Assembly (NCBI GenBank): GCA_034439575.1
Contig: JAWXAQ010000007.1
Coordinates: 288,454-352,453, forward strand
Direction: 5' to 3'
DNA: 64,000 nucleotides
Source of the DNA: Leptospira sp.
GTDB lineage: Bacteria > Spirochaetota > Leptospiria > Leptospirales > Leptospiraceae
How positions within the stretch are numbered: position 1 is the first letter of the stretch; each line of letters begins with the position of its first letter. The notes beneath the pieces are model-generated. The model searched no databases. It was given only the letters and a program-made list of their open reading frames with translations, and was not told where the DNA came from. A program made the translations under genes and the position numbers. Shown here one piece after another: positions 49,009 through 64,000 of the stretch.

Positions 49009-49078
49009 TGTTTAGGTCAAAGTCTTTTCCGTTTACCCTACCGACGATTCCCTGGAAAAAAACCAATTGTTGGTCTAT

Positions 49079-52060
49079 ATGAAAAAACTCATCACATTTG
49101 CATCGCTTACGATCTCTCTTTTACTTCCTTTTGCTATTTGGTCGCAGGCTACCGGTTCGATCAAAGGTACTATCATTGATTCCGAAAATGGAGAAGCCGT
49201 ATTTGGCGCGACGATAGTCGTTCGTTCCGAAAAGAAATTCGCAAAAACAGACTTTGACGGAAAATATTCCTTAGATCTTGCTCCAGGCAATTACCAAGTT
49301 GAATTCCAAATGTACGGTTATGGTCCGCAGACAAGATCCATCACAGTTTCGCCTGGAAAATCAGTAACACAAAATGTTACCTTCGGTGCGCAAACTTTAG
49401 AAACTGTGGAAGTAAAGGATCGAGCTATAAATGAATCCGATTCTGCACTCCTTAATCTCCAAAGAAAATCTGCCACTGTATCTGATGGAATTGGATCCGA
49501 GTCGATCAAAAAGTCTCCCGATTCATCTGCTAGTGAAGTAGTTCGTCGGGTCACAGGAATTACGTTAGTTGGTGGTAAATTTGTATTTGTTCGAGGACTT
49601 GGAGAAAGATATTCTTCGACATATCTAAATGATGCTTATATTCCTTCTACGGAACCTGACAAACGTGTGGTGCCGTTGGATTTGTTTCCAGCGTCTTTGA
49701 TTAAAAATATTCGAATTATTAAATCGTTTGTTCCTGAAGAGTCTGGTGAGTTTTCAGGCGGACTTGTTAAAATTGAAACCAAAGACTATCCTGATCAATT
49801 TTTTATGAATGTCGGTGTAGGCATCGGGATGAATGCAAACACAACACGAAATAAATGGCTGACTTTTAATGGTGGAGATTTTTTCGGAAGACCAACAGCT
49901 AGCCAGGAATTGCCAAGTATTGTAAAATCCGTACCGGATGTACTTCCTTTTGAACCAGGAAATAGATTCGGTGGAATCCCTTCGCAATTAGTTGGGATTG
50001 GAGCTGCAACATTTCCTAGCAATTGGAGTTCAGAAGAGACGAAGGCACCTTATGATCGGAACTTTAATTTCTCAACTGGAAATACATTTAAACTAACAGA
50101 AACAGGACAAAGACTAGGCATTATTTTCGGAACGACACATTCTGTTGATTATCGTTTTAGAAGACAAAAAGATGTTAGATACATTCCTGGAAATCCTATT
50201 GCCACTACATTTACTGACCTAACAACGATTTCTCCATTACAATCACAAAATGCTGATATTTACGTAGAAGAGCGGTTATTCGGTAACAATTTAAATTTAA
50301 ATTATGAGCCAATGACGGGACAACAGTTCTTTTTAAAGAACTTTTATTCTGTGTCTTCGGAAAAAACCGTTAGAGAAGCACAAGGTTTTAACAATATTGA
50401 CACTTTTGAATTTTTTTCACAGACTCATGATTTTATAAGTCGTCAACTATTTAACAGTTCGTTAGGTGGAAAACATGCAATTAATCTGTTCGGTGCAAAT
50501 CGTCCTCATACATTAGATTGGCAGGCAAATTTAGGGGAAGCAAAACGTGACGAACCAAATTTGACTCAACAAGTTTGGCGAAGACCACAAGGTGCCAATC
50601 CAACTACCATTCCTACTCGTCTCGGAAACAACCCAGATGGATCAAGATTTTATTCAAACGCGACGGATACCGTTAGAAGTGCCTCTGTAGCATATGAAAT
50701 TCCATTTGACCAATGGAATGGATTAAAATCCACATTTAAGTTTGGTGGTAGTGCTTTAGATCGTTTTAAATCTTTTAAGTTTCGTGAATTTGGATCAAAA
50801 TCAAACACTGGAGTTGGTACAGCCGATTCATATTTAGTACCTGGTGAAATTGTCTACAATCCTGCAGAATATCTTCGTAGCAATTCTAATGGCCTACCTA
50901 ACAAAACATTTTCTGAACGTCAGGTGGAACCAAACGCTTATGATGCGTTTCAAAAATTACATAGTTTTTTTGGTCAGGTCGATATTCCCATAGTTTCAAA
51001 AGTTCGATTTATCGGTGGTGTTCGTTACGAAGATTCCTATCAGTATGTTAAGACATTCGTTTTAAAAGATCAGTGGAATGGAGCAAAGCCAACTTACGGA
51101 TGTGATACGAAAAGTGAATATGAAAGATTGGCATTAGTAAATAGCAGAGCTTGTGCCGCTGACAATAATGGTATTGGTGAACTCAGAACAAGAGACAAAT
51201 TACCTAGTGCTAACTTCGTTTATGAATTTTTAAAAGATCAAAATTTACGCTTTGGGTATTCTGAAACTGTAACAAGACCGGATTTTAGAGAATTATCTCC
51301 ATTCGCATTTACTCCGTTCTTCGGGGCAGATAGGATACGCGGAAATTCTGACTTAAACCGAACCTACATCCATAACTATGACTTTCGTTGGGAATGGTAT
51401 ATGGGAGCTACAAATTATGTAGGTGCTGGTGCGTTTATGAAGGACATGTCAAATCCTATCGAAACAATCGGTCAACCAGTGGCCGGCCAAGTATCACCTT
51501 TCTTTACTTATGCGAATGCAGGCAAAGCAACGATTCGCGGTGTTGAGATTGATTTCAGAAGAGAATTTTTTGATAAAATCCGTTTTGAAACAAACTTTTA
51601 CTTTATCAAATCACTCGTAAACGTAGTTTCTTGGGAACAATTTACCATTGGACGAGCTGGACTTTTAGATCGAAATGATCGAAGTTTTTCTTATGATCCA
51701 ACTAACATTAGACGATCATTGCAAGGTCAATCAGACTTCGTGGCAAACCTTAAATTCGATGTCTTTATCACAAAAGCCAAAGATATGACGATCGGTTTAT
51801 ACTATAATTATTTTGGTGATAGGATCTATGTGGTGGGTGCTAATGGTACACCAGACTCTTACGAAAAAGGCGTGGGTATTACAGATTTAGTTTATTCAGC
51901 AAAGAAAGACGACAAATTAGATTTTAAATTTGCCGCACGTAATATCTTTGATCAGAGATTTAGAATATATGTGAGAGACGAACTATTGAACGAAGAAAAA
52001 CTTTTCCGTTCCTATCGGGAAGGTGTTTCGTTTTCAATGTCTGCAACGTATAAATTCTAA
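49079..52060 (+). CDS. TonB-dependent receptor with N-terminal carboxypeptidase-regulatory-like domain
   Basis: Signal peptide, [17 protein letters not shown], plug VRGLGERYS...PLDLFP...[16 protein letters not shown], barrel ending YKF. Confidence 0.93.
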
Positions 52061-52070
52061 AAGGAACTTT

Positions 52071-52880
52071 CTATTTTACTGAATCTGCATTTAACATAAT
52101 TGGCATTCCGTCCTTGCCACTTGGCATGATGATCAATTTGTTATTTGGATTCTCTACAGCTTTTAGTTGGATGTATTTTTGTGTAATGGATTCAGCTAAA
52201 AGTTTTTGTGCCTTTGCTTGTGCTTCTGCTTCGATGAGGATCGCTTTTGCTTTTCCTTCAGATGTTATAATTTGAATTTCTGCATCACGTTTAGCGATGT
52301 TAATTTCAAATTTCATTTGTTCCTGTTCTTGTTGTTTTGTTAATTTTGTTTCTATGGCTCTTAAAATGGAAGGGCTATACTCTACATCATCAATGATCAC
52401 ATCATCAATATCGACGTGTTTGTTGGAAAGTTTTTCGACAAGATTCTTTTTAATTTGAATCGATACGTTAGGTGTCTCCTTGGAGATAGAAACCATGTTG
52501 TATGCAGATAATATATTTCGGATAGATGTTCGAAATTGTGGGCGGACTACTTTTTCGTAATAGTCAGTTCCGATCTCCATTTGTAATTCATAAAGTTCAT
52601 TTTCTTTCGCTCGCGCTATCAATTGAGCCGTCACGACAATCGTTAAATCATCTCGAGTTAAAACTTCAACTTTTTCTTGGTAAGATCTCCATTGAATCGA
52701 ATACGTATAAACACTGTTCCACGGGAGATAAAATTGCACTTTGGAATCAAGTGGCTTTTGTCCAAGACCACTGCTATAAGGTTTCCACATCAATCCGACT
52801 TCACCTGGATCAATGATAGTGATACAATTGGAAAGAAGGAAGGAGACAAGCGAGATAGCAAAAAATAGTCGACGGTTCAT
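52071..52880 (-). CDS. SPFH/prohibitin (band 7) family protein
   Basis: IIDPGEVG, VLTRDDL, AIETK...EQE, AEAQAKA coiled coil, YIQLKA; LSNC lipobox-like. Confidence 0.9.
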   Translation of the reverse strand: MNRRLFFAISLVSFLLSNCITIIDPGEVGLMWKPYSSGLGQKPLDSKVQFYLPWNSVYTYSIQWRSYQEKVEVLTRDDLTIVVTAQLIARAKENELYELQMEIGTDYYEKVVRPQFRTSIRNILSAYNMVSISKETPNVSIQIKKNLVEKLSNKHVDIDDVIIDDVEYSPSILRAIETKLTKQQEQEQMKFEINIAKRDAEIQIITSEGKAKAILIEAEAQAKAQKLLAESITQKYIQLKAVENPNNKLIIMPSGKDGMPIMLNADSVK

Positions 52881-52905: not shown

Positions 52906-53400
52906 ATGTTTTCAATACCTTTGTTAGACCGAAGTTCAGGGAAATTAACTTTTATTCTCCTTTGTCTGGTGTTTTGTCTCCCGAATTGCCAAAATGATGA
53001 AACAGTCAAAAAGGATCTCCCGAAGCAGGAGATTGTTTTTTTTCAAGCCATTGACCAAGGCGATTATGAAAAAGTTCAAAAAATGCTAAACGAAGGATTT
53101 CCGATCAATAAAAAAGATACGTATGGAAATTCCGCGCTGATTCGAGCTGTTGACCAAGAAGAAACCAAAATAGTTCAATTATTACTTGATAAAGGTGCCA
53201 ATCCGAATCTGAGAAACACGGTGGGCGAAACGGCACTATACAGGGCTGTTTTTCGGGGTAATTTTTCTCTCGTGAAGTATTTGGTGGAGAAAGGAGCAGA
53301 GACAAAAATAAAAAATATTGAAGGAGTCAGTCCTGTGCAACTCGCAGATGATAGAGGCGAAGATGCCATCCAAAAATATCTGGAAAGCCTTAACAAGTAG
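52906..53400 (+). CDS. Ankyrin-repeat lipoprotein
   Basis: GNSALIRA, LLLDKGANPN, GETALYRA, YLVEKGA; LPNC lipobox. Confidence 0.88.
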   Translation: MFSIPLLDRSSGKLTFILLCLVFCLPNCQNDETVKKDLPKQEIVFFQAIDQGDYEKVQKMLNEGFPINKKDTYGNSALIRAVDQEETKIVQLLLDKGANPNLRNTVGETALYRAVFRGNFSLVKYLVEKGAETKIKNIEGVSPVQLADDRGEDAIQKYLESLNK

Positions 53401-53488: not shown

Positions 53489-53734
53489 ATGCCAGCATCT
53501 CCTTTAAAGAATTTAGCACTTAGTGAAAATGGATTTGTTTTTGATCCATCCAGTGGCAATACGTTTATTTTAAATGAAACTGCCCTAAGTATTGTTAAAC
53601 TATTAATTCAAGAAAAAACTAAAGAAGAAATATTAACTCACCTTATTAAAGAGTATGATACAAATTCGGAAGAATTGGAGCGAGATTATTCTGATCTAAC
53701 GATACAATTACGAGAATTAGGCTTAATTGAATGA
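53489..53734 (+). CDS. PqqD family / RiPP recognition element (RRE) protein
   Basis: 81 aa; FVFDPSSGNTFILNETALSIVKLL...EEI...LIKEYD...LERD...LRELGLIE (three strands plus three helices, PqqD pattern). Confidence 0.85.
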   Translation: MPASPLKNLALSENGFVFDPSSGNTFILNETALSIVKLLIQEKTKEEILTHLIKEYDTNSEELERDYSDLTIQLRELGLIE

Positions 53735-54777
53735 ATAGACCCGTGGTTGCTGTCTCTGGAATGAGTGCAGTAGATAGTCCAGCACCTGGCGTACCCGTAT
53801 TGCGCTCGTTAAAGGAATCTAAGCTAGACCCTGTACTCATTGGACTATCTTATGGAACTTTGGAACCGGGCAATTTCATGACAGAATTATTGGAAAATTC
53901 TTATATTATGCCTTATCCCAATTCTGGGCCTCAAGTATTGCTAGAAAGAATAAAAAATATTCACAGTAAACAAAAGTTAGATGTTATTATACCGACTCTA
54001 GATTCAGAATTGGAAAATTATATTTCTATTCAGTCCGAATTATCTCAAATGGGAATTCGAATGACCTTACCTGGTAAAAAGGAATTACATACTAGAGATA
54101 AAACTTTTTTGAATGAAACTTTTAAACAAAGCGAAGTTCTTCTACCTGAAACAATTGCTATCAATGATATAACAGCACTTCGGCAAGTTGCAGATGAAAT
54201 CGGATATCCTGTGCTAATAAAAGGAATCTTTTATGAAGCATATCTTGCACGAACATATGAAGAAGCAGTTGGATTTTTTTATATGTTAGCTTCAAAATGG
54301 GGAATGCCAATTATCATTCAGAAATTTATTTCGGGAGAAGAGTGTAACGTTTGTGCATTGGCCAATCAGGGAACATTGACTGGTGCTGTGGTGATGAAAA
54401 AATTGTTTCTGACAGATAAAGGAAAAGCTTGGGCTGGTGTTACAATTAATAACCAAGAAGCACTCAAAACATCGGAAAAAATTTTAGAACAGATAGGATG
54501 GAATGGTGGTTGTGAATTGGAATTTATTGTGGAGAGTAGAACAAATAAAATGTATCTACTAGAAATCAATCCAAGATTGCCAGCTTGGGTATATCTTGCC
54601 ACTGCGGCTGGTCAAAATTTACCTGACGCTATTCTTAGAATGTCGTTAGGCGAAAACGTATTACCTTACAAAGATTATAAAATAGGTATGGTTTTTGTGC
54701 GTCATAGTTGGGATGAAATCATTCCCATGGATGCACTCGAATCTTTATCAATATACGGACAATTAAAAGAGAATTAG
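53731..54777 (+). CDS. ATP-grasp amidoligase (carbamoyl-phosphate-synthase-like)
   Basis: DVIIPTLDSEL, RDK, GYPVLIKG, IIQKFISGEE, ELEF, LLEINPR. Confidence 0.88.
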   Translation: MNRPVVAVSGMSAVDSPAPGVPVLRSLKESKLDPVLIGLSYGTLEPGNFMTELLENSYIMPYPNSGPQVLLERIKNIHSKQKLDVIIPTLDSELENYISIQSELSQMGIRMTLPGKKELHTRDKTFLNETFKQSEVLLPETIAINDITALRQVADEIGYPVLIKGIFYEAYLARTYEEAVGFFYMLASKWGMPIIIQKFISGEECNVCALANQGTLTGAVVMKKLFLTDKGKAWAGVTINNQEALKTSEKILEQIGWNGGCELEFIVESRTNKMYLLEINPRLPAWVYLATAAGQNLPDAILRMSLGENVLPYKDYKIGMVFVRHSWDEIIPMDALESLSIYGQLKEN

Positions 54778-54787
54778 AAAATATTTT

Positions 54788-56119
54788 ATGGAAAAAAAAA
54801 CTTATATCCGACCACAGATCCGAAAACAATACTTAGGTGCTTCAAATAAATTTGGAGGGTATACTCCTCCAGAAACTTTGTCTTCTATTGATGGAGTTTC
54901 GATTGAATCCCTTATAAAGGAATACGGATCTCCTTTATTTATATTTTCTGAATCCACGATCAAAAAGAAGGCACAAAGCTACAAACAAGCGTTTGAGTCT
55001 CGGTATCCACTTTTTCAACCTACTTGGTCGTACAAAACTAATTATCTCAATGCGATATGTAAAGTTTTTCATAAAGAAGGATTTTGGGCGGAAGTGGTTT
55101 CCTCTTTCGAATACCAAAAGGCCCGAAAGAACGGCATTCCTGGGAACAAAATCATATTCAACGGTCCTTATAAACCCTACCAAGCCTTGAAATTGGCGGT
55201 TTCTGAAGGAGCTAGAATTCATATAGATCATTTAGATGAAATTAAAGATTTACTTCAAATATCAGATGAACTCGGTAAAAAAATCGATGTAAGTTTGAGA
55301 ATTTCCATCGATACAGGAACCTATCCAACTTGGAGTAGATTTGGTTTTAATCTGGAATCAGGTCATGCTTTAGAAGCGGCAAGAAAAATAGCACATAGCA
55401 ATGGCAAATTGGCATTAGTTGGTGTTCATACTCATATCGGCACATTTATGTTAGATCCAAATTCATATAAACGTGCGGCTATAAAAGTCTCTGCTTTTTA
55501 TAAAACTTTGCGTGATGAACTCAGACAACCTATGACATACATTGACTTAGGTGGCGGTTTTGTATCGGCGAGTAAATTAAAAGGTTCTTATCTTTCAAAT
55601 GCCTCCCTTTTGCCAAATTTTGATCAATATGCAGAAGTTATATGTGCAGCTCTTTATGATTCTTTTTCACCAGAGCAACCGCCAGCTTTATTTTTAGAAT
55701 CAGGTAGAGCTCTTATTGACGAAGCCGGATACCTTGCAAGTACAGTCGTCGGTATCAAAACATTACCGACAGGTAAACGAGCGATGGTCATTGATGCAGG
55801 TGTAAATCTTCTTTATACGAGTACTTGGTATGATTATAATATATCACCAATCAAAGAGTATACGAAAGTATATGAAGATGTGATTCTCTATGGACCATTA
55901 TGTATGAATATTGATGTCGTTAGAGAAAGTTGTCTATTACCTAACATAACTCGAGGAGAAAGTATCGTTATACATCCAGTAGGTGCTTATAATGTAACAC
56001 AATGGATGCAGTTTATAGAAATGAGACCGGCAATTGTAATGATTTTATCAAATGGCGAAATTAAACAAATACGAAAAAGAGAAAATGTAGATGATATCAA
56101 TCATATGGAGTTAGAATGA
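54788..56119 (+). CDS. PLP-dependent fold-III (diaminopimelate/ornithine decarboxylase-like) enzyme with N-terminal extension
   Basis: YGSPLFI, WSYKTN (PLP Lys), EVVS, IIFNGPYK, SRFG, HTHIG, DLGGGF, ESGR, GPLC, GAY. Confidence 0.88.
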   Translation: MEKKTYIRPQIRKQYLGASNKFGGYTPPETLSSIDGVSIESLIKEYGSPLFIFSESTIKKKAQSYKQAFESRYPLFQPTWSYKTNYLNAICKVFHKEGFWAEVVSSFEYQKARKNGIPGNKIIFNGPYKPYQALKLAVSEGARIHIDHLDEIKDLLQISDELGKKIDVSLRISIDTGTYPTWSRFGFNLESGHALEAARKIAHSNGKLALVGVHTHIGTFMLDPNSYKRAAIKVSAFYKTLRDELRQPMTYIDLGGGFVSASKLKGSYLSNASLLPNFDQYAEVICAALYDSFSPEQPPALFLESGRALIDEAGYLASTVVGIKTLPTGKRAMVIDAGVNLLYTSTWYDYNISPIKEYTKVYEDVILYGPLCMNIDVVRESCLLPNITRGESIVIHPVGAYNVTQWMQFIEMRPAIVMILSNGEIKQIRKRENVDDINHMELE

Positions 56120-58221
56120 AAAATTCCCTTAAGACAGTTGGGATTTCGACACTTTCTGCCTATTCTACAGTATTGTTTAGCGGTAGTCCGATTTTAGGAT
56201 TTTTAATTTTTTGTGCTACACTTTTTAATCCACCTGCTGCATTGACTGGATTGCTTGGCATATTATTTTCAAATTTTCTGGCCTTATTTTTAGGCGTTTA
56301 TGAAGAACGAATTCGAAAAGGCCTATATGGCTTTAATGGTTTGTTAGTCGGACTTTCTGTTAGTATTTATCATCAAGTAGATTTAAATTTGATAATAATA
56401 TTACTAGCGGCGATAATTTTATTAGTATTTGTCACTCTTTCTCTTGAGTATATACTGTCCTATTTTTTTGGTTTGCCTGTGTTATCACTTCCATTTGTGA
56501 TCGTGAGCATCATTTTATACTTGTCTTTTTATGACTATAAAGGATTAACCAACAAACAAGCATATGTCTTTCCATATGACAATTTGTTTCCTGAAATACC
56601 TTACTATATACTTTATTATTTAAAAAGTTTGGGAGGTATATTTTTTCAATCAAGTCCATGGTCTGGATTATGTATCGCCATCATACTTTTAATATCGAGT
56701 CGCATAGTTTTTTTATTATCTGTGTTAGGTTTTGGCTTGGGTTTGACATTCCATATTTTTTTAAATGGAAATTTGGATGGTATCGCGATAGGAAATGTTG
56801 GATTTAATTATATCCTTACATCCATCGGCGTTGGTGGTTATTTTTTAATCCCAAGTCCATATACTTTTATATTGGCAGGCTTTTCTGCGATTGCAAGCGC
56901 ACTCGTATCTTCTTTCACAAAAGTATTTTTAGTCCAATTTAATGTTCCCGTTTTTGCTCTACCATTTGCAACTGTTACACTTTTGTTTATTTATGTAGCA
57001 AGACTTCTCAGAAATCCAAAATTTATTTTTGTCGATTTTCCTCCAGGATCCCCGGAAAGAAATTTAGATTATTTTAAAACTAGATTGAAACGATTCGGAG
57101 ACAATGGCGCCTATATTCGTCTTCCTTTTTCTGGAAAATGGCAAGTTAGCCAAGGTTATAATGGTAAGTATACTCATAAGGATTCATGGAAAGAAAGTTT
57201 GGACTTTATGGCTGTTGGACCTGATGGCAAACTTCGTAAAGGAAATGAGAATGCGATGGGCGATTTTTATACTTACGGACTGAATGTTCTTTCACCATCC
57301 TATGGTCGAGTGATCAAAGTGATTAATCATATCGAAGACAATCCGATCGGAAGTGTGGATACAAAAAATAATTGGGGAAATTTGGTTTTAATAGAACATG
57401 CCCCTTATTTCTATTCTCAAATTTCTCACCTCCAAAAAAATAGCATTGTTGTCAAGGAGGGAGATATAATCCAAGCAGGGACCAAAATTGGTTTGGCCGG
57501 AAACTCTGGTAGAAGTTTGGAACCGCACATTCATCTTCATTTCCAATCTACACCAGAAGTGGGGAGTTCAACAATCCCGATTACCTTTACTCAGTACCAA
57601 GATGAATCAGAAAGCAAAATTCAAATTAAATTTAATTCAATCCCTAAAGAAAGAGAAATTGTTAATAATTTATCACCTGATTTTAATTTAAAAAATTTCT
57701 TTTTGCTTTCGCCCGGAGAAACGTTTAAGATAAAATTTGAAATGGTAGGTAAGAGTATCTATGAGGATGTTTGGAAAGTGAATTTGGATTTAATGGGAAA
57801 TCGCTACATTGAAGATGATAGAAACAATCGACTTTATTTCATTTCTTCCTTAGATTATTTTGCTTGTTTAGATTATATTGGAAAAAAGAAAACCAGTCTG
57901 TTTTTCTTTTTTTTAGCAGCATATAGAATTCCTTATGTAAGAAATCAAAGTTTTTTCGAAGATCAAATTTCTTATAAACCATTTTCAAATATTTTTATTA
58001 GATTTTTAAAAGATTTAATTCATCCTTTTAGCGAAACTGTAGGCTTTCAATGGAAAAGTAAACTTAAAGAAATTGATAATACGATTAAAATTGAATCTGA
58101 AGTTATCGGTAGGTCAAATAAACCGATATATGAAATTTCACTTGATCCAAGTAAGCTGATGCCTGGTGAAATCAATGCTCGTGATTTATTCGGCAATGAA
58201 TGGATTCTTAGCAAAATATGA
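56116..58221 (+). CDS. Urea-transporter-family membrane domain fused to M23 peptidase-like domain
   Basis: About 10 TM with GLYGFNGLLVG, PVLSLPFV, VGFNYIL, PVFALPF duplicated UT signatures; then LPFSGKWQVSQG, WGNLVLIEH, SHL, VKEGD, GNSGRSLEPHIH. Confidence 0.85.
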   Translation: MKNSLKTVGISTLSAYSTVLFSGSPILGFLIFCATLFNPPAALTGLLGILFSNFLALFLGVYEERIRKGLYGFNGLLVGLSVSIYHQVDLNLIIILLAAIILLVFVTLSLEYILSYFFGLPVLSLPFVIVSIILYLSFYDYKGLTNKQAYVFPYDNLFPEIPYYILYYLKSLGGIFFQSSPWSGLCIAIILLISSRIVFLLSVLGFGLGLTFHIFLNGNLDGIAIGNVGFNYILTSIGVGGYFLIPSPYTFILAGFSAIASALVSSFTKVFLVQFNVPVFALPFATVTLLFIYVARLLRNPKFIFVDFPPGSPERNLDYFKTRLKRFGDNGAYIRLPFSGKWQVSQGYNGKYTHKDSWKESLDFMAVGPDGKLRKGNENAMGDFYTYGLNVLSPSYGRVIKVINHIEDNPIGSVDTKNNWGNLVLIEHAPYFYSQISHLQKNSIVVKEGDIIQAGTKIGLAGNSGRSLEPHIHLHFQSTPEVGSSTIPITFTQYQDESESKIQIKFNSIPKEREIVNNLSPDFNLKNFFLLSPGETFKIKFEMVGKSIYEDVWKVNLDLMGNRYIEDDRNNRLYFISSLDYFACLDYIGKKKTSLFFFFLAAYRIPYVRNQSFFEDQISYKPFSNIFIRFLKDLIHPFSETVGFQWKSKLKEIDNTIKIESEVIGRSNKPIYEISLDPSKLMPGEINARDLFGNEWILSKI

Positions 58222-59738
58222 AAAAGTACATTCTAATATTATTAATGCTGAATGTTGTTTCAGTCTTCGCCCAAGAAAAATCAAATATACAGTTAGACAA
58301 AAAAAAATATTATGAAACGATTCAAAATTTGGACAAAGCTATCACAATCGAACCAAATTCTGGCATTTTATATTTGAATCGTGCTTATGCACTCATGATG
58401 ATAGGTTCTTATGAAAAGGCTCTATTGGATTACAATGTAGCTTATGAAAAGACTTTGGCCTTTGATGCCTTGGTGGGAATTCAATGGGCAGAATTTTCAT
58501 TAGAACATTATGAAAAATCCATTTTAATCGGAGAACAAATCTTAGACCAAGTGCCTAATCATTATTATGTGCTTTATCGCATGGCTGAAGCATATTTTTT
58601 TCTAAAAGATTATTCTAAAGCCTACCAATTTTACGGTGAACTCATAGACTCTCATGGAGAAACGGGATATTTAGTTTGGAAAAAAGGTTTATCAGCGTAT
58701 TACTTAGAAAATTATATCAAGGCGGATGCTTTATTTAAACGAGCCTATGCCTTAGAACCAAGTCATCCAGGTATTGAATATTCATATAACAATTCAAAGG
58801 TGTATCCATATTTTGTGATCAATCCTGAAATAACATCATTCCAATTTAAAGGTTCTGATTTTTTAGGTAAAGGGGAACGAGCAGGTATTAATATCGGAAT
58901 TGGTTTAGATTCGGATTGGTCATTTCGTGTTGGTGCTTCTCGCGATGTGACACAAAATCTAAATTCGTCAAAAGGTGTAGAAAATTATTTTTTTGACCCA
59001 TTGGCATTTGTGTATTATAATTATTATAGATATACACCAGCTAACATAGGTACTTATATTACTCAGCCTATTAATTTGTACAACGTCAATAACCTATTAT
59101 CAGAAGAAAACTATGTGACAAACAAAGGATCACTTGGTATCACATATCGCCTTTCAGAGAAATATTCTTTGTCTACTTCTGGAAATTATTTGAGTTCAAA
59201 TTCAAAATATCTGCATGGAGGAGGGACAGGTCAAATCGGAATAGTCTATACTAACTTCTATTCAATGGGATTTAATCTAAGTGCGATTTCTCATCCGCAA
59301 AGTAAAGGTGGGCAAGGATCTTACTTTTTCTCGATTCCATTTTTTGAATATTTTTATTCTACTTCCACAATTACAGGTCAATCAATGAAAGTTGATAGCA
59401 GTGAAATACAATTTTATTCACTATCCCCACCATCAACGTATACTGAAAATATAACTAGAAGTAGAAATTATGGTTTTTTCCAACAGGAATTTGGTTTTAA
59501 TTCTAAATACTTTTTTACAAGTCTTGGTGGGCGAGTGGGCAAAGCTAGAAACCCACTTTTTGGTGAATCTTGGATTTATCCAGGGTTTGACTTGTTAAAT
59601 GGTGGTTACGGAAGGATTGGTGTAAGATATTCTAGTTTTACATTGCAAGTTGATGTAAGTCGTGATTTTTGGCTAGATTCACGTAATGATCGTCCAGTTT
59701 CAGATACAATAAAACTTAGTTTAGTAGGTGCATTTTGA
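58218..59738 (+). CDS. Exported TPR protein with aromatic beta-rich C-terminus (possible outer-membrane barrel)
   Basis: Signal peptide (VFA-Q), TPR helices, alternating beta pattern, terminal Phe (LSLVGAF). Confidence 0.7.
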   Translation: MKKYILILLMLNVVSVFAQEKSNIQLDKKKYYETIQNLDKAITIEPNSGILYLNRAYALMMIGSYEKALLDYNVAYEKTLAFDALVGIQWAEFSLEHYEKSILIGEQILDQVPNHYYVLYRMAEAYFFLKDYSKAYQFYGELIDSHGETGYLVWKKGLSAYYLENYIKADALFKRAYALEPSHPGIEYSYNNSKVYPYFVINPEITSFQFKGSDFLGKGERAGINIGIGLDSDWSFRVGASRDVTQNLNSSKGVENYFFDPLAFVYYNYYRYTPANIGTYITQPINLYNVNNLLSEENYVTNKGSLGITYRLSEKYSLSTSGNYLSSNSKYLHGGGTGQIGIVYTNFYSMGFNLSAISHPQSKGGQGSYFFSIPFFEYFYSTSTITGQSMKVDSSEIQFYSLSPPSTYTENITRSRNYGFFQQEFGFNSKYFFTSLGGRVGKARNPLFGESWIYPGFDLLNGGYGRIGVRYSSFTLQVDVSRDFWLDSRNDRPVSDTIKLSLVGAF

Positions 59739-60688
59739 GTTTATCAGATCAAACCGATTGGGGCAAATTACAGTCGTTACAGAAGGTATGTCGTCCAGGC
59801 TTAGAAATAATCATTCAAGGTGAATATCCCAAAAGTCTTTTTATCTTGTTAAGCGGTCGGTTGAGTGTTTATAGACATGGCATAAAGATATCCGAAATTC
59901 GTAAACGCGGCGATTATATAGGGGACATTGCGATGTTACTTAAATCGCCAGCAAGTGCTACCGCAAAAACTGAAACTGATATCGTTGTGATAGAGATAGA
60001 CTCATCCAATGTTCAAAAACTTCTACAACATAGCCCTGGAGTGATCATCGCTATGGCAAGAAAGATGGCAGAGCGCCTCGCTGATTTAAATAATAATTTT
60101 TCTCAGTTAGTTGATAAATCTTTCCGACCAGATTTAGTAAAAAGACTCCAAGAACACCAAAAAAGTATAACTGCACAAACTTCAGTGGTATTGAATTTAG
60201 ATGACTTAAAATCATATGCAAAAGATGTAAAAGACGGAACAAAAATTCTCACTCAAGGACAGGATCCGAGTGCGCTTTATATTTTAGTGAAAGGAACTGT
60301 CGAAATCTATAAAAATTCTAAAATGATCGCTGTTGAAGATGAACCTGGGTATTATTTAGGTGATGTGGCTATTTTGCGGGGGAAGCCATCTAATGCGAGT
60401 GTGGTTTCTCGCGGCAATGTGACTTTAATAGAGATTCCTCTGGAGAAAATTGAATCCTTTTTAAATCATTCACCACAAATTGCGCTATCGATCGCCGAAA
60501 AATTAGCTTTAAGAACATTAGCTATTAATGAATTATTTCTAGATTTGAAAGCAGAATTTATTAAAGAAACACAACATACTTCTAAAACATCTGCGAAAAA
60601 TCCAGAAGATGTTGCGAGTGAAAGAATGAAACATTTTGATCAAGTGGGAAAAGATATTATGGAACTTCTCAATATAGATTTGCACTAA
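59735..60688 (+). CDS. Tandem cyclic-nucleotide-binding domain protein without HTH
   Basis: Two repeats: QGE...LFILLSGRLSV...GDYIGDIAML...ASATA and QGQ...LYILVKGTVEI...YYLGDVAIL...SNASV. Confidence 0.82.
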   Translation: MSLSDQTDWGKLQSLQKVCRPGLEIIIQGEYPKSLFILLSGRLSVYRHGIKISEIRKRGDYIGDIAMLLKSPASATAKTETDIVVIEIDSSNVQKLLQHSPGVIIAMARKMAERLADLNNNFSQLVDKSFRPDLVKRLQEHQKSITAQTSVVLNLDDLKSYAKDVKDGTKILTQGQDPSALYILVKGTVEIYKNSKMIAVEDEPGYYLGDVAILRGKPSNASVVSRGNVTLIEIPLEKIESFLNHSPQIALSIAEKLALRTLAINELFLDLKAEFIKETQHTSKTSAKNPEDVASERMKHFDQVGKDIMELLNIDLH

Positions 60689-63600
60689 TCACTTTCCTAA
60701 CATTTCAAAGATACCATCCCAATCTTTCGCTACACCATCCGTTAGGTGCTTCTGGATACGCTCTATATAGAGTTCAAGCAACCTATCGTCTGGAAATTTT
60801 GTTAACATATTCTGAAAATCAAATAGAGCAGATTTAAAATCAGCATTTAGATATTTTTTGATCGCTATCTCTAGTTCTACTTTTGAGTCCAATTTTTGTT
60901 TGTAAGTTTCTTCGCTATCGGCGTCAAAAATTTCATATATTTCTATTGCAGCTTTTCTACCTTTGACTCTTACTTTATCCAAATATCGAATCGAATAATT
61001 TTCTGGATTTTGAATCTTCGAAAGAACTGCAGAACTAATGATCAGTGAAACTCCATAAAATTTTGTAAGTCCTTCTAGTCTTGCCGCCAAATTAACGTTA
61101 TCTGAAAATGCATCGCCTTGCATTCTATTGGATTCACCGATCATACCGACCATCATAAAGCCAGTATGGATTCCAAATCCTGATTTGATCGGCAAATAAC
61201 CTTTAATAATTCTCTTACTATTATAATTATTTAATTCTTTTAATTGGGCAATCGCTGAGTCTATAGCACTTTCCACATCTTTTTTATATACCGCCATGAT
61301 AGCATCACCCACATATTTTATGATGATACCGTCGTATTCTCTGACCTTAGGGCTAATCCTTTTAAAGTAAGCATTGACAAAATTAAAATTTTCTTGTGGT
61401 GTCATCGTTTCAGAAAGAGTCGTAAATGATCGAATGTCTGAAAATACAACAGCCATTTCTGTCGCAACGTTATCACCTAATAGTACATCAATGATACTTT
61501 CTTTGGATAACAATTTCAAATAATCACTCGGAACGAATCGAGCATAAGATTTATTTAAGTTTGAAATTACAAGGTGTGTTTTAATGCGAGTCAGCAATTC
61601 TTCCTTTTGAAAAGGTTTTGTTAAATAATCATTTGCCCCGCATTCAAAACCATAAACCAGATCACTGATAATATTTTTTGCCGTAAGTAGAATGATCGGC
61701 AAGGTTCCATGTGATTTAGTTTCTCGAATGATTTTACATACATCATAGCCAGACAATTTTGGCATCATAATATCCAACAGAACCAAATTAATTTCTGACT
61801 CTTTTAATATTTTGAGCGCCTCTTCCCCATTATATGCTTTGATAATATTATATCCAACAAGTGTTAAATGATTTTCTAATACTTGAATATTTATTTGTTC
61901 ATCATCAACTATTAATATAGTTTGATTTTTATTTATATCATTGGATATAGTTGGTACAATATCGGAATCATTGAAAAGGTTAGGAACTATATTGTTATTT
62001 ATAATTTGATTTGATTCTAAGGGTGATATTGGTAATTCAGATGATATGGGAATCGTAAAATAAAATTCACTTCCTTTTCCTAATTCAGACTCTAGCCAAA
62101 TTTTTCCTCCATGCAATTCGATTAATTTTTTTGAGATACTTAATCCAAGTCCTGTTCCTCCATAGTTTCTAGAAATGGATGCATCCACTTGTTCGAAAGA
62201 ATGAAAAATATTCTGAAATTGATCCTTAGGAATACCGATTCCTGTATCTGAAATTTTAATTTGTATAAATTGATTTGATATAGATTCTGATTCTATGATG
62301 ATATGACCTTGTTCAGTGAACTTTATCGCATTCCCGATTAAATTTAATAAAATCTGTTGTAAACGGTTTTCATCACCGAACACTATTGGCGAGGGTTCTG
62401 GAATCTTATTTACTAAAGATATTTTTTTTCCTGATATTAAATGTTCCGATAAGAGTAATACCATACTTACCAAAGAGCGAATATCAATAGGTTTTTGAGA
62501 AAGTATTAATTCTTTATTTTTCAACTTTGAAAAATCCAATATATCATTCACTAAATTGGATAATCTTTTACCGCTGATAGAAACTAATTTTAAATTACTT
62601 GTTGCAATATGATTTAAAGGTCCCGTTGCTCCGTCTAACATTGAATCTGCTATTCCTATGATTCCATTCAAAGGTGTTTTTAATTCGTGAGAAGTATTCG
62701 ATAAGAATTCATCTTTTAATTTGTCATTTCTTTCCAGATCATCAGCCATTCTATTAAAAGAATTTCCTAATTCACCAATTTCATCTTTTGAATCAACTTT
62801 CACTCTGACTTTCAGATTTCCTCGACCAAATTCTAAGGTGGCTAACTTAAGTTTGAGAATAGGTTTTATGGTTTTATTAGTTAGATAGTTAATTAATATT
62901 AATGTAAAAAGAATAATTGCAAATCCTAGCAGGAGAATATTATTTCTCAAATTTTTAATTGGCAGAAATGCAACTTCTTTCGGGAAATTTAGATAAAGAA
63001 TCCATCTATTTCCAGAATAATCTAAAAAGCCTTCTTCTTCCTTTTTAGAATTTATGTAATCGTCTGGATTTTTGATAATTTGATCAGATGTTATGTTTAA
63101 AAAATCAGTTTCAGAATTAGTAAGATGATTTGAATCCAATAATAGATTATTTTGTGTGACTAGATCAAAAAGAATGAATTTATTATCATCCAAAGTGCTA
63201 TACAGAATTTGACGCAAATTTCCCATCGAAATAAAACCCACAATAGCTCCATTTACGTTACCCTGCTTACTGAGTATGGGTGTGGCAAAGACGATGACTT
63301 TCTGTTTTAGATCTTCATCAAAATAAATATCATTTCCAGAAGAAGCATTCAAATATGAATAAACTTCCTGACTCCAAATTTGTGACTGACATTTTTTTCC
63401 AATACCAAGTCCAATTGTATCAACTAACTTAATGCAGTTTTTATCATAATATGATAATGAAATATATACTTTTTTTTGATTTCTAAAGGTGATTAATTTT
63501 TGAGTTATTTCTTCTATATTGGAAGGATTTTGAAAATTTGGATCACTGCTGAGAGTTGCTAAATCAGAAAATCGTTCGAACAAAACTCTATCGGTTTTAT

Positions 63601-63751
63601 CAAAGACATGGTTAGAAGTATCATCCAAAGAAATTTGAATTTGTTCTTCAACTTGGTTTACTGCAGAAATATAAACAAATGATGCTACAGTTATCAAAAT
63701 CATTAATGATAAGCTTAAAAAAGCTAAAAATAGTTTTGTTCTGAGTTTCAA
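60689..63751 (-). CDS. Hybrid sensor: Cache-like/HAMP/histidine kinase/receiver/class III nucleotidyl cyclase
   Basis: Two [82 protein letters not shown]. Confidence 0.93.
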
Positions 63752-64000
63752 TTGATTTTCTCTTCGATTAAAAATTCATTATCAAGAATCTTTTGAAGAT
63801 TTGGGTTTCGATAAAGCTGGCCTCTTTCACGCAAAAACTGTACGATAGTTTCTGCGGCGATAAATAATGCTCCTCGGCTAGTTTTATTCATAGCATTATT
63901 TTTTACCAAAGTATTTTCGTTCGCCAACATAACATTAAACGATGAATTAAGGGTTTGTATATTTTCTTCTTTGGATAGAAATCGTATCGAACCTAATTCT
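63748..64000 (-). CDS. C-terminal part of a gene continuing beyond the window (possibly a periplasmic binding protein for the sensor)
   Basis: Frame stays open to the window edge; stop overlaps the sensor start codon; product assignment is weak. Confidence 0.55.

Follow-up and report, generated by a model that had tools for sequence, protein, structure and literature searches.

A co-conserved and apparently unstudied gene cassette joining a PqqD-type protein, an ATP-grasp ligase and a pyridoxal phosphate decarboxylase to a urea transporter-M23 fusion protein in Leptospira and other bacteria

In butirosin biosynthesis, BtrI, BtrJ and BtrK ligate an amino acid and then decarboxylate it while it is tethered, and in the LysW/LysX and pearlin pathways a carrier or scaffold peptide receives an amino acid, which is modified in the tethered state and then released by a hydrolase. 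In the assembly of rhizoferrin and staphyloferrin B, according to passages of PMC7857480, FigC/FslC and SbnH carry out decarboxylation only after a ligase has joined the amino acid to a carboxylate partner. Here we describe a gene cassette whose proposed logic resembles that of the LysW, butirosin and pearlin pathways. It lies near the end of a 64,000-nucleotide stretch of Leptospira sp. DNA (assembly GCA_034439575.1, contig JAWXAQ010000007.1, positions 288,454 to 352,453; hereafter the window), from a genome of 4.1 Mb in 37 contigs that is rated 99.98% complete. It encodes a stand-alone PqqD protein of the type known as recognition element (RRE) of RiPPs (ribosomally synthesised peptides with post-translational modifications), an ATP-grasp ligase, a pyridoxal phosphate (PLP) decarboxylase, a urea transporter (UT) domain fused to an M23 peptidase (UT-M23) and proteins with tetratricopeptide repeats (TPR). 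The cassette is real and strongly co-conserved and, so far, appears to be unstudied.

Relatives of the UT-M23 fusion were collected from a scan of one genome per species (185,579 species), which gave 518 loci, 80 of which were fetched, and from a metagenome scan seeded with two Aquificota-named proteins and one protein from a Proteobacteria metagenome-assembled genome (MAG), which gave 67 further loci. Gene context was tested by tblastn of the window proteins over these 147 loci (at least 35% query coverage, E at most 1e-4, same strand, within set distances), 139 of which had a UT-M23 match. The decarboxylase gene stood directly upstream of UT-M23 in 99 of the 106 loci with at least 1.5 kb of upstream flank. 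Of the 97 loci whose upstream flank was 3.2 kb or longer, 90 carried both the decarboxylase and the ATP-grasp genes upstream of UT-M23, and 89 carried the collinear trio of PqqD, ATP-grasp and decarboxylase; in locus L064 a 1114-aa gene on the opposite strand parts the trio from UT-M23, and L135 gave no PqqD match. All open reading frames (ORFs) of the 80 genome loci were clustered to find further conserved members. A small secreted TPR protein of about 205 aa, called here c2, is encoded downstream of UT-M23 on the same strand in 93 of the 100 loci that extend 2.5 kb or more downstream. In 100 of 108 loci UT-M23 and c2 are separated by an ORF of at least 250 aa, whose product ends in Phe in 83 of those 100; this middle gene, which has a signal-peptide-like start in the conserved ORF, corresponds to the TPR protein of the window.

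This arrangement is far beyond chance and marks one conserved functional unit, whose universal core consists of PqqD, ATP-grasp, the decarboxylase, UT-M23, the TPR and barrel-like protein and c2, that is, three cytoplasmic proteins, one inner-membrane protein and two secreted TPR proteins. An earlier interpretation made from the letters of the window (the sequence-only reading) had proposed a single pathway uniting enzymes for amide formation and decarboxylation with proteins of the envelope, and had named a lack of co-conservation in other genomes as what would refute it. The collinearity of the trio with UT-M23 supports this proposal as far as the core genes are concerned; the gene for a cyclic nucleotide (cNMP)-binding protein that it had included drops out, as it accompanies the cassette in Leptospiraceae loci only, and the barrel half of the TPR protein and c2 had been missed.

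Leptospiraceae, Turneriella, Bacteroidota and Chlorobiota are the sources of the loci, together with metagenome contigs that share 55-81% identity with a Desulfurobacterium protein. Both Pfam domains are present in all of the best 120 database matches to the fusion of about 700 aa, whose source names include Leptospira ognonensis, L. ilyithenensis, Turneriella, Chlorobi, Draconibacterium, Desulfurobacterium atlanticum, Phorcysia thermohydrogeniphila and a Proteobacteria MAG. The UT part had no match in 40 close relatives of the window's genome (24 of the same genus, 16 of the same order), where only M23 domains matched. The cassette ATP-grasp was found in 22 of 114 Leptospiraceae genomes (8 of 14 genera) and in 4 of 40 other genomes of the window's own genus, and in none of the 22 and 24 genomes of two large Leptospiraceae genera. 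Because of this patchy distribution, the cassette is an accessory trait within the family. The features of the window and its continuation are as follows.

53489..53734, plus strand: stand-alone PqqD/RRE-type protein, 81 aa (ORF list and Pfam)
53731..54777, plus strand: ATP-grasp ligase, 348 aa (ORF list and Pfam)
54788..56119, plus strand: PLP decarboxylase of fold III (alanine-racemase fold), 443 aa (ORF list and Pfam)
56116..58221, plus strand: UT-M23 fusion, 701 aa, with the UT-fold channel at residues 1-300, the M23 zinc-peptidase domain at about 330-500 and a beta-rich domain at about 526-701 (ORF list, Pfam and AlphaFold2 model)
58218..59738, plus strand: TPR domain at about residues 20-195 and probable outer-membrane beta-barrel at about 195-506, 506 aa (ORF list, Pfam and ESM Atlas)
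59735..60688, plus strand: cNMP-binding protein with two domains, 317 aa, TTG start (ORF list and Pfam)
60689..63751, minus strand: hybrid of HAMP, histidine kinase, receiver and class III nucleotide cyclase (Pfam HAMP, HisKA, HATPase_c, Response_reg, Guanylate_cyc)
63748..64000, minus strand: C-terminal part of an NMT1/THI5-like solute-binding protein, which is truncated where the contig stops (tblastn)
G000:C35:193290-193886, beyond the window on another contig: c2, the small TPR protein predicted to be secreted, with 80% identity to that of L. ognonensis (Pfam TPR)

The six plus-strand ORFs of the sequence-only reading, with their coordinates and domain assignments, were all reproduced from the ORF list and from Pfam matches above the curated cut-offs, as were their junctions, four with 4-base overlaps and one with a 10-base gap. 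The Pfam scores were 48.2 bits for PqqD, 44.7 for ATPgrasp_Ter, 40.3 for CPSase_L_D2, 112.3 for Orn_Arg_deC_N, 46.5 for Orn_DAP_Arg_deC, 193.3 for UT, 47.5 for Peptidase_M23 and 103 for cNMP_binding (in two stretches), and the 506-aa protein matched TPR families. The kinase-cyclase hybrid is encoded on the opposite strand, its end abutting the end of the cNMP gene. Contig C7 stops at base 64000 of the window, whose last 80 bases are found again in the reverse-complemented end of contig C35, and the NMT1-like binding protein (Pfam NMT1 for its cluster, c27) is split over the two contig ends: tblastn with the homologue from L. ognonensis (locus L015) placed residues 260-338 in the window and 18-281 at the end of G000:C35. 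The gene order of the joined contigs (the cNMP gene, then the opposite-strand kinase-cyclase, the binding protein and c2) is that of L. ognonensis and L. ilyithenensis. Sequence scans of promoter-like sites (36 versus 33.6 +/- 5.2 in shuffles) and terminator-like sites (7 versus 4.4 +/- 2.0) gave counts not above chance and do not bear on the operon.

The PqqD protein scored 40.2 on NCBIfam model TIGR04353 (cut-off 35), and its stop codon is overlapped by 4 bases by the ATP-grasp gene. A database protein of 414 aa, P0153 (a cluster of 6 member sequences), carries in frame a PqqD domain, truncated at its N-terminus, and a cassette-type ATP-grasp part 59% identical to that of the window; this putative fusion is either real or an assembly or frameshift artefact. 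From the gene overlap and P0153 we infer that the RRE works with the ATP-grasp ligase, and together with the PqqD score these two features agree with what characterises RiPP clusters, an RRE/PqqD-fold domain working with a tailoring enzyme. The RRE domain in turn points to a peptide or protein as ligand. The ligase itself matched Pfam ATPgrasp_Ter, CPSase_L_D2 and ATP-grasp_3 and reached the cut-off of no NCBIfam model (best a PRK12767-type model, 76 of 390 bits), and its best solved relative was carbamoyl-phosphate synthase (E 4e-6). It gave weak NCBIfam matches to LysX, RimK and cyanophycin synthetase (the last at E about 5e-3), with 20.4 bits on LysX_arch against a cut-off of 275.6. Its likeness to the LysW/LysX pathway lies in the weak LysX and RimK matches; the cassette differs from the LysW and pearlin pathways in having no LysX-level score, no conserved C-terminal Glu on PqqD and no LanB-like PEARL enzyme, and no scaffold gene was found in the flanks searched. 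The C-termini of PqqD vary among homologues (E, K, Q, R or extended tails), and PqqD was rejected as a LysW-like carrier because its C-terminus, including the Glu, is not conserved. With butirosin the cassette has in common the gene order of small protein, ATP-grasp and fold-III decarboxylase, but the small protein of butirosin is an acyl carrier protein, whereas that of the cassette has the PqqD/RRE fold, and the other btr genes are missing. Every test of membership in the LysW, butirosin or pearlin families failed.

The best match of the decarboxylase in the PDB was 7kh2, the N-citrylornithine decarboxylase FigC/FslC (E 1.2e-57; best LysA 7e-42), and BtrK was matched as well (E 4e-20). The enzyme scored 225.8 bits on the FslC model of NCBIfam (NF041039, cut-off 500) and about 218 bits (217.9-218.2) on the LysA model (TIGR01048, cut-off 297.9). 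As both scores lie below the cut-offs, it belongs to neither family; it is of a FigC/FslC-like branch. Its PLP lysine, HxHxG motif (with the His stacking on PLP), GGG loop and catalytic Cys align with those of FigC, its closest solved relative, which also shares the Cys-Met start of the catalytic Cys loop. This loop reads GPLCMNID in all 66 full-length cassette decarboxylases, whereas a CESGD-type loop, in which the Glu has a role, is a feature of LysA. A second, LysA-like gene of the same genome, on contig C20 (G000:C20:53703-54929), carries CESGD and scored 264.8 bits on the LysA model, above the cassette enzyme; the latter is not the housekeeping LysA. Its being the only one was another of the outcomes that would have refuted the sequence-only reading.

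Decarboxylases of this kind require a free alpha-amino acid head group, and BtrK acts on carrier-bound glutamate. Passages of PMC7857480 state that FigC/FslC decarboxylates N-citrylornithine, which is formed first by a ligase, and group the enzyme with SbnH in a subfamily outside polyamine synthesis. The sequence-only reading had proposed that an amine is made and then ligated. Because the nearest characterised relatives of the decarboxylase (FigC and SbnH; BtrK) act on already ligated amino acids, that is, after amide formation, the reverse order, ligation and then decarboxylation, is likelier. The FigC/FslC systems differ from the cassette in their partners: they use an NIS (siderophore) synthetase and export through a pump of the major facilitator superfamily, whereas the cassette has an ATP-grasp ligase with an RRE, and UT-M23. 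No NIS synthetase was found among the annotated conserved neighbour families.

An AlphaFold2 model of the fusion protein was built from 13 sequences (mean pLDDT 84.7). Its residues 1-326 superposed on residues 51-383 of human UT-B (Z 36.6, rmsd 2.3, 312 residues) and its residues about 330-508 on M23 domains (EnpA, Z 14.9; LytM, Z 14.4). The UT domain (PF03253) scored 193.3 bits against a cut-off of 25, and both domain and fold are those of a urea transporter, but the score on the urea-transporter equivalog TIGR03441 was 127.8, below its cut-off of 274.6. The cassette protein thus has its fold in common with the UT channels (dvUT, UT-A, UT-B; Z 36 over 312 residues) and differs from them in carrying a peptidase and a beta domain, in its sub-equivalog score and in coming from a genome where no urease was found. 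Pore motifs of the LPxxSxPF type (P121, L123, S124, P126, F127) were kept in at least 185 of 188 distinct sequences. The M23 domain (47.5 bits, cut-off 28.7) is the best-conserved region of the fusion over these sequences; the five catalytic or zinc residues H354, D363, H438, H471 and H473 do not vary in any of the 188, so the peptidase looks active. Its first motif has a 9-residue His-Asp spacing, and LytM-type M23 enzymes have HxxxD at this place. Residues 526-701 form a beta-rich domain whose structural matches reached at most Z 8; likenesses to vitellogenin/lipovitellin (Z 8.0 and 7.8) and to designed or autotransporter barrels (Z 7.3-7.5) were rejected as within the noise range of the tool, and its ESM Atlas feature scores (0.77 and 0.75) stayed below lead level.

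Beyond residue 295 the fusion has no further hydrophobic segment, and about 8 Lys/Arg occur in the 35 residues that come next. In the part of PMC12998343 (Biol Direct 2026) that treats UT-B, the aligned region is an intracellular C-terminal loop and the N-terminal tail is intracellular too. Since the UT-B C-terminus is intracellular, no later hydrophobic segment exists and the stretch is rich in Lys/Arg, the M23 and beta domains of the fusion probably face the cytoplasm. Such a location argues against peptidoglycan as the substrate, and with it against the cell-wall role that the sequence-only reading had considered for M23. A role in urea nutrition is unlikely in this genome because no urease alpha subunit was found in it and no urea carboxylase above the cut-off.

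The 506-aa protein has a signal-peptide-like N-terminus, TPR Pfam matches at residues 38-192 only, and the C-terminal end LVGAF. Its residues 195-506 had no PDB sequence match and no Pfam family even at E 1. In the ESM Atlas they were grouped with barrels of the YaiO, Slam and BcsC type (feature score 0.94), and they superposed on a YaiO barrel model with TM scores of 0.65/0.77 (query/row). On these model comparisons, the C-terminal part of about 300 residues is probably an outer-membrane beta-barrel, a lead. YaiO, Slam and BcsC/PgaA-type proteins have the same layout of signal peptide, TPR repeats and a C-terminal barrel ending in Phe; the cassette differs from these exporters in lacking a Pfam barrel match and a glycosyltransferase or lipoprotein cargo gene, and no glycosyltransferase synthase of the PgaA/BcsC/PelB type was found among the annotated conserved neighbour families. 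It should be noted that in several high-GC metagenome loci (L121, L137, L150-L152, L154 and L155; GC 0.56-0.62) c2 directly follows UT-M23, with no barrel-sized ORF between them.

Outside the core, the neighbourhood depends on the lineage. The cNMP gene stands beside the cassette only in Leptospiraceae loci (L015, L016, L017, L019 and L020), upstream and on the opposite strand in three of these five, and the kinase-cyclase hybrid is linked to the cassette in L015, L016, L019 and L020. Together with the solute-binding protein, these genes occur with the cassette only in Leptospiraceae loci, in varying positions, and we read them as a control module specific to this lineage. Beyond its cNMP-binding domains, the cNMP protein carries no Pfam domain. 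A Pycsar system was rejected: the cNMP protein and the cyclase gave domain-level PADLOC matches to effector and cyclase models, and no TIR or membrane effector domain is present. An anti-phage defence role was likewise rejected, the five core proteins having no PADLOC match. In Bacteroidota, a regulator that combines a heavy-metal-associated domain with a DNA-binding domain of the AraC type often lies upstream of PqqD; of the 89 loci in both sets that reach 1.2 kb or more beyond PqqD on its upstream side, 28 have it. Genes for DUF2202, Metal_resist (Spy/CpxP-like), a sigma/anti-sigma pair of the extracytoplasmic function (ECF) type, DUF4405 and a cation-diffusion facilitator recur near the Bacteroidota cassettes; in L052 and L067, DUF4405 lies downstream, clustered with the ECF sigma factor, anti-sigma factor, Metal_resist and DUF2202 genes.

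Upstream of the cassette, the window encodes a TonB-dependent receptor with a CarboxypepD_reg N-terminal domain (49067-52060, plus strand), an SPFH/Band 7 protein (52071-52880, minus strand) and a 164-aa ankyrin-repeat protein with a signal- or lipoprotein-like N-terminus (52906-53400, plus strand), the last 88 bases upstream of PqqD. The ankyrin-repeat gene is syntenic in L. ognonensis, lies elsewhere in the L. ilyithenensis locus (L019) and is not part of the cassette outside the genus. In L015 a 997-aa ORF occupies the position of the TonB-dependent receptor (matched by position) and the Band 7 gene is 89% identical; neither gene accompanies the cassette in other lineages. The cassette itself also varies in places. 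In three Bacteroidota MAGs and one Chlorobiota MAG (L029, L030, L031 and L038) the cassette has an inserted gene for a 276-aa IF-2B-family protein, methylthioribose-1-phosphate isomerase-like, which separates the decarboxylase from UT-M23, and upstream of PqqD lies a gene for a peptidase M64; in L035, L039 and L042 a DUF4405 membrane protein is inserted between PqqD and ATP-grasp. L043 and L082 each have the decarboxylase broken into two ORFs, and in L028 UT-M23 is divided into 204 and 530 aa; these are decaying copies or MAG assembly errors. In 18 Bacteroidota loci c2 is followed by a protein of about 265 aa (e.g. L086:4743-5540) with a type IX secretion C-terminal sorting domain as its sole recognised domain, and in about 10 loci an Acyl_transf_3 membrane acyltransferase comes next.

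As a tentative reading of the whole cassette, for which the chances are somewhat below even, we propose that an amino acid is ligated to a scaffold peptide, decarboxylated there, released by M23 and exported through the UT pore and the barrel. The RRE would hold a peptide or protein segment for the ATP-grasp enzyme, which would join the amino acid to it via a side-chain amide, so that both the alpha-amino and the alpha-carboxyl groups stay free. The PLP enzyme could then strip the alpha-carboxylate, leaving a tethered amine. At the cytoplasmic mouth of the channel, M23 would cut a small amine or amide product, or a short peptide bearing it, from the scaffold, and the product would exit through the UT pore and cross the outer membrane via the TPR-barrel protein, with c2 as a possible periplasmic partner. 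Control would be lineage-specific, by cyclic-nucleotide signalling in Leptospiraceae and by the metal-binding AraC regulator in many Bacteroidota.

Several observations weigh against this proposal. The enzyme trio is absent nearby in six of the 97 loci (L053, L063, L104, L115, L143 and L162). No conserved scaffold or precursor ORF was found in any lineage in the 800 bases before PqqD or in the 800 bases after c2: the search covered ATG-start ORFs of 12-75 aa on the cassette strand in loci with PqqD or c2, and the 583 ORFs obtained formed clusters solely between closely related loci, where they are frame shadows of adjacent genes. The operon of the window also leaves no room for a precursor ORF, with its 88-base gap before PqqD. 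As the flanks searched hold no conserved precursor-like ORF, the peptide substrate is hypothetical, and the ATP-grasp enzyme has no close characterised relative in NCBIfam or the PDB that would indicate its substrates. The topology of the fusion is drawn from homology and charge, and all M23 enzymes known to us are extracytoplasmic. Finally, the pairing of a TPR-barrel with a periplasmic TPR protein is characteristic of systems that export polymers or proteins and not small molecules.

Other explanations can be offered. A conventional RiPP pathway, in which a precursor encoded elsewhere would be bound by the RRE and tailored, for instance with a diamine cap, before M23 cuts off the leader, with UT as an anchor or regulator, seems unlikely, at perhaps one chance in five. 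It would account for a stand-alone PqqD/RRE protein coupled to a tailoring enzyme and putatively fused to it in P0153, for a conserved and apparently active peptidase and for a dedicated outer-membrane TPR-barrel, which suits peptide or protein export. The flanks searched, however, yielded no conserved precursor-like ORF (a precursor may be encoded elsewhere in the genome), and no graspetide- or microviridin-type maturase model was among the 25 NCBIfam families listed for the ATP-grasp, a library whose coverage of such models is unconfirmed. Moreover, the strong conservation of the UT pore motifs suggests that the pore itself is used, and from known structures it is too narrow for a peptide. 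Remodelling of the cell wall or envelope, with a periplasmic M23 acting on peptidoglycan, the Ddl-like ATP-grasp and LysA-like decarboxylase altering a peptidoglycan precursor or recycled muropeptide, and TPR proteins tying the complex to the outer membrane, is quite improbable in our view. All three enzyme families do have peptidoglycan-related members (weak D-Ala-D-Ala ligase, LysA and MepM/ShyA matches), the structures that the M23 domain matches best are those of peptidoglycan hydrolases, and the Bacteroidota cassette often lies beside envelope-stress genes such as the ECF sigma/anti-sigma pair and Metal_resist. Against it, homology and charge put M23 in the cytoplasm, the decarboxylase is nearer to FigC and lacks the CESGD loop of LysA, and PqqD would be left with no role.

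A further explanation is secretion of a linear polyamide by an envelope-spanning machine, an amide analogue of synthase-dependent exopolysaccharide secretion. In its favour, a TPR-barrel with a periplasmic TPR partner forms the outer-membrane half of polymer secretion in PgaA, BcsC, PelB and AlgK/E systems; a BcsC-related cluster was among the Atlas look-alikes of the barrel. On a primer held by PqqD, the ATP-grasp and the decarboxylase would cycle repeatedly, adding a dicarboxylic or diamino acid and decarboxylating it to bare a new amine. The chain would be nylon-like, e.g. poly-gamma-aminobutyrate, or epsilon-polylysine-like from diaminopimelate; a cytoplasmic M23 would trim it, and it would be threaded outwards through the slot-like UT pore and the TPR-barrel. 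Alternating ligation and decarboxylation is the chemistry of BtrJ and BtrK in butirosin, and BtrK is a PDB match of the decarboxylase. We nevertheless regard this as a long shot: there is no direct sign of iteration, the ATP-grasp matched cyanophycin synthetase only marginally (the E value given above), and we know of no polymer that crosses a UT channel. A true channel for urea or small amides, gated or regulated by the cytoplasmic M23 and beta domains and surrounded by genes of a nitrogen or polyamine metabolism that makes or consumes urea, would fit the UT score, the Z of 36 to solved urea channels and the conserved pore motifs. It is the least probable of these explanations, and very improbable in itself, because neither urease alpha nor a urea carboxylase above cut-off was found in the genome, the score falls under the NCBIfam equivalog cut-off, and the RRE, the invariant peptidase site and the outer-membrane partners would go unexplained.

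The sequence-only reading knew of no characterised pathway of this composition, and literature searches on the combination of PqqD/RRE, ATP-grasp, UT and PLP decarboxylase likewise yielded no account of it. The portion of PMC12998343 at hand lists the combination of UT and M23 domains, without function or gene context. In the sections at hand of a 2025 survey of RREs (PMC12710340), the PF02222 ATP-grasp family serves as a neighbourhood marker and the word 'decarboxylase' does not appear.

A metal-related product is hinted at by the metal-associated AraC regulator and the metal- and envelope-stress neighbours in Bacteroidota, and by the kinship of the decarboxylase with siderophore-type enzymes. 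Several carriers are in culture, namely Mariniphaga anaerophila DSM 26910, Leptospira ognonensis, L. ilyithenensis, Desulfurobacterium atlanticum and Phorcysia thermohydrogeniphila, which makes the question directly testable. Should the polyamide explanation be the true one, the cassette would be a pathway to a polymer independent of both the ribosome and non-ribosomal peptide synthetases, and a new use of the UT fold. If the tethered-amine pathway that we tentatively favour is correct, the cassette would represent a widespread and so far unstudied route by which bacteria make and export an amine-bearing metabolite, unusual in an RRE that serves an ATP-grasp ligase, in an M23 metallopeptidase that works inside the cell and in a urea-channel fold taken over to let the product of a biosynthetic pathway out through the inner membrane.

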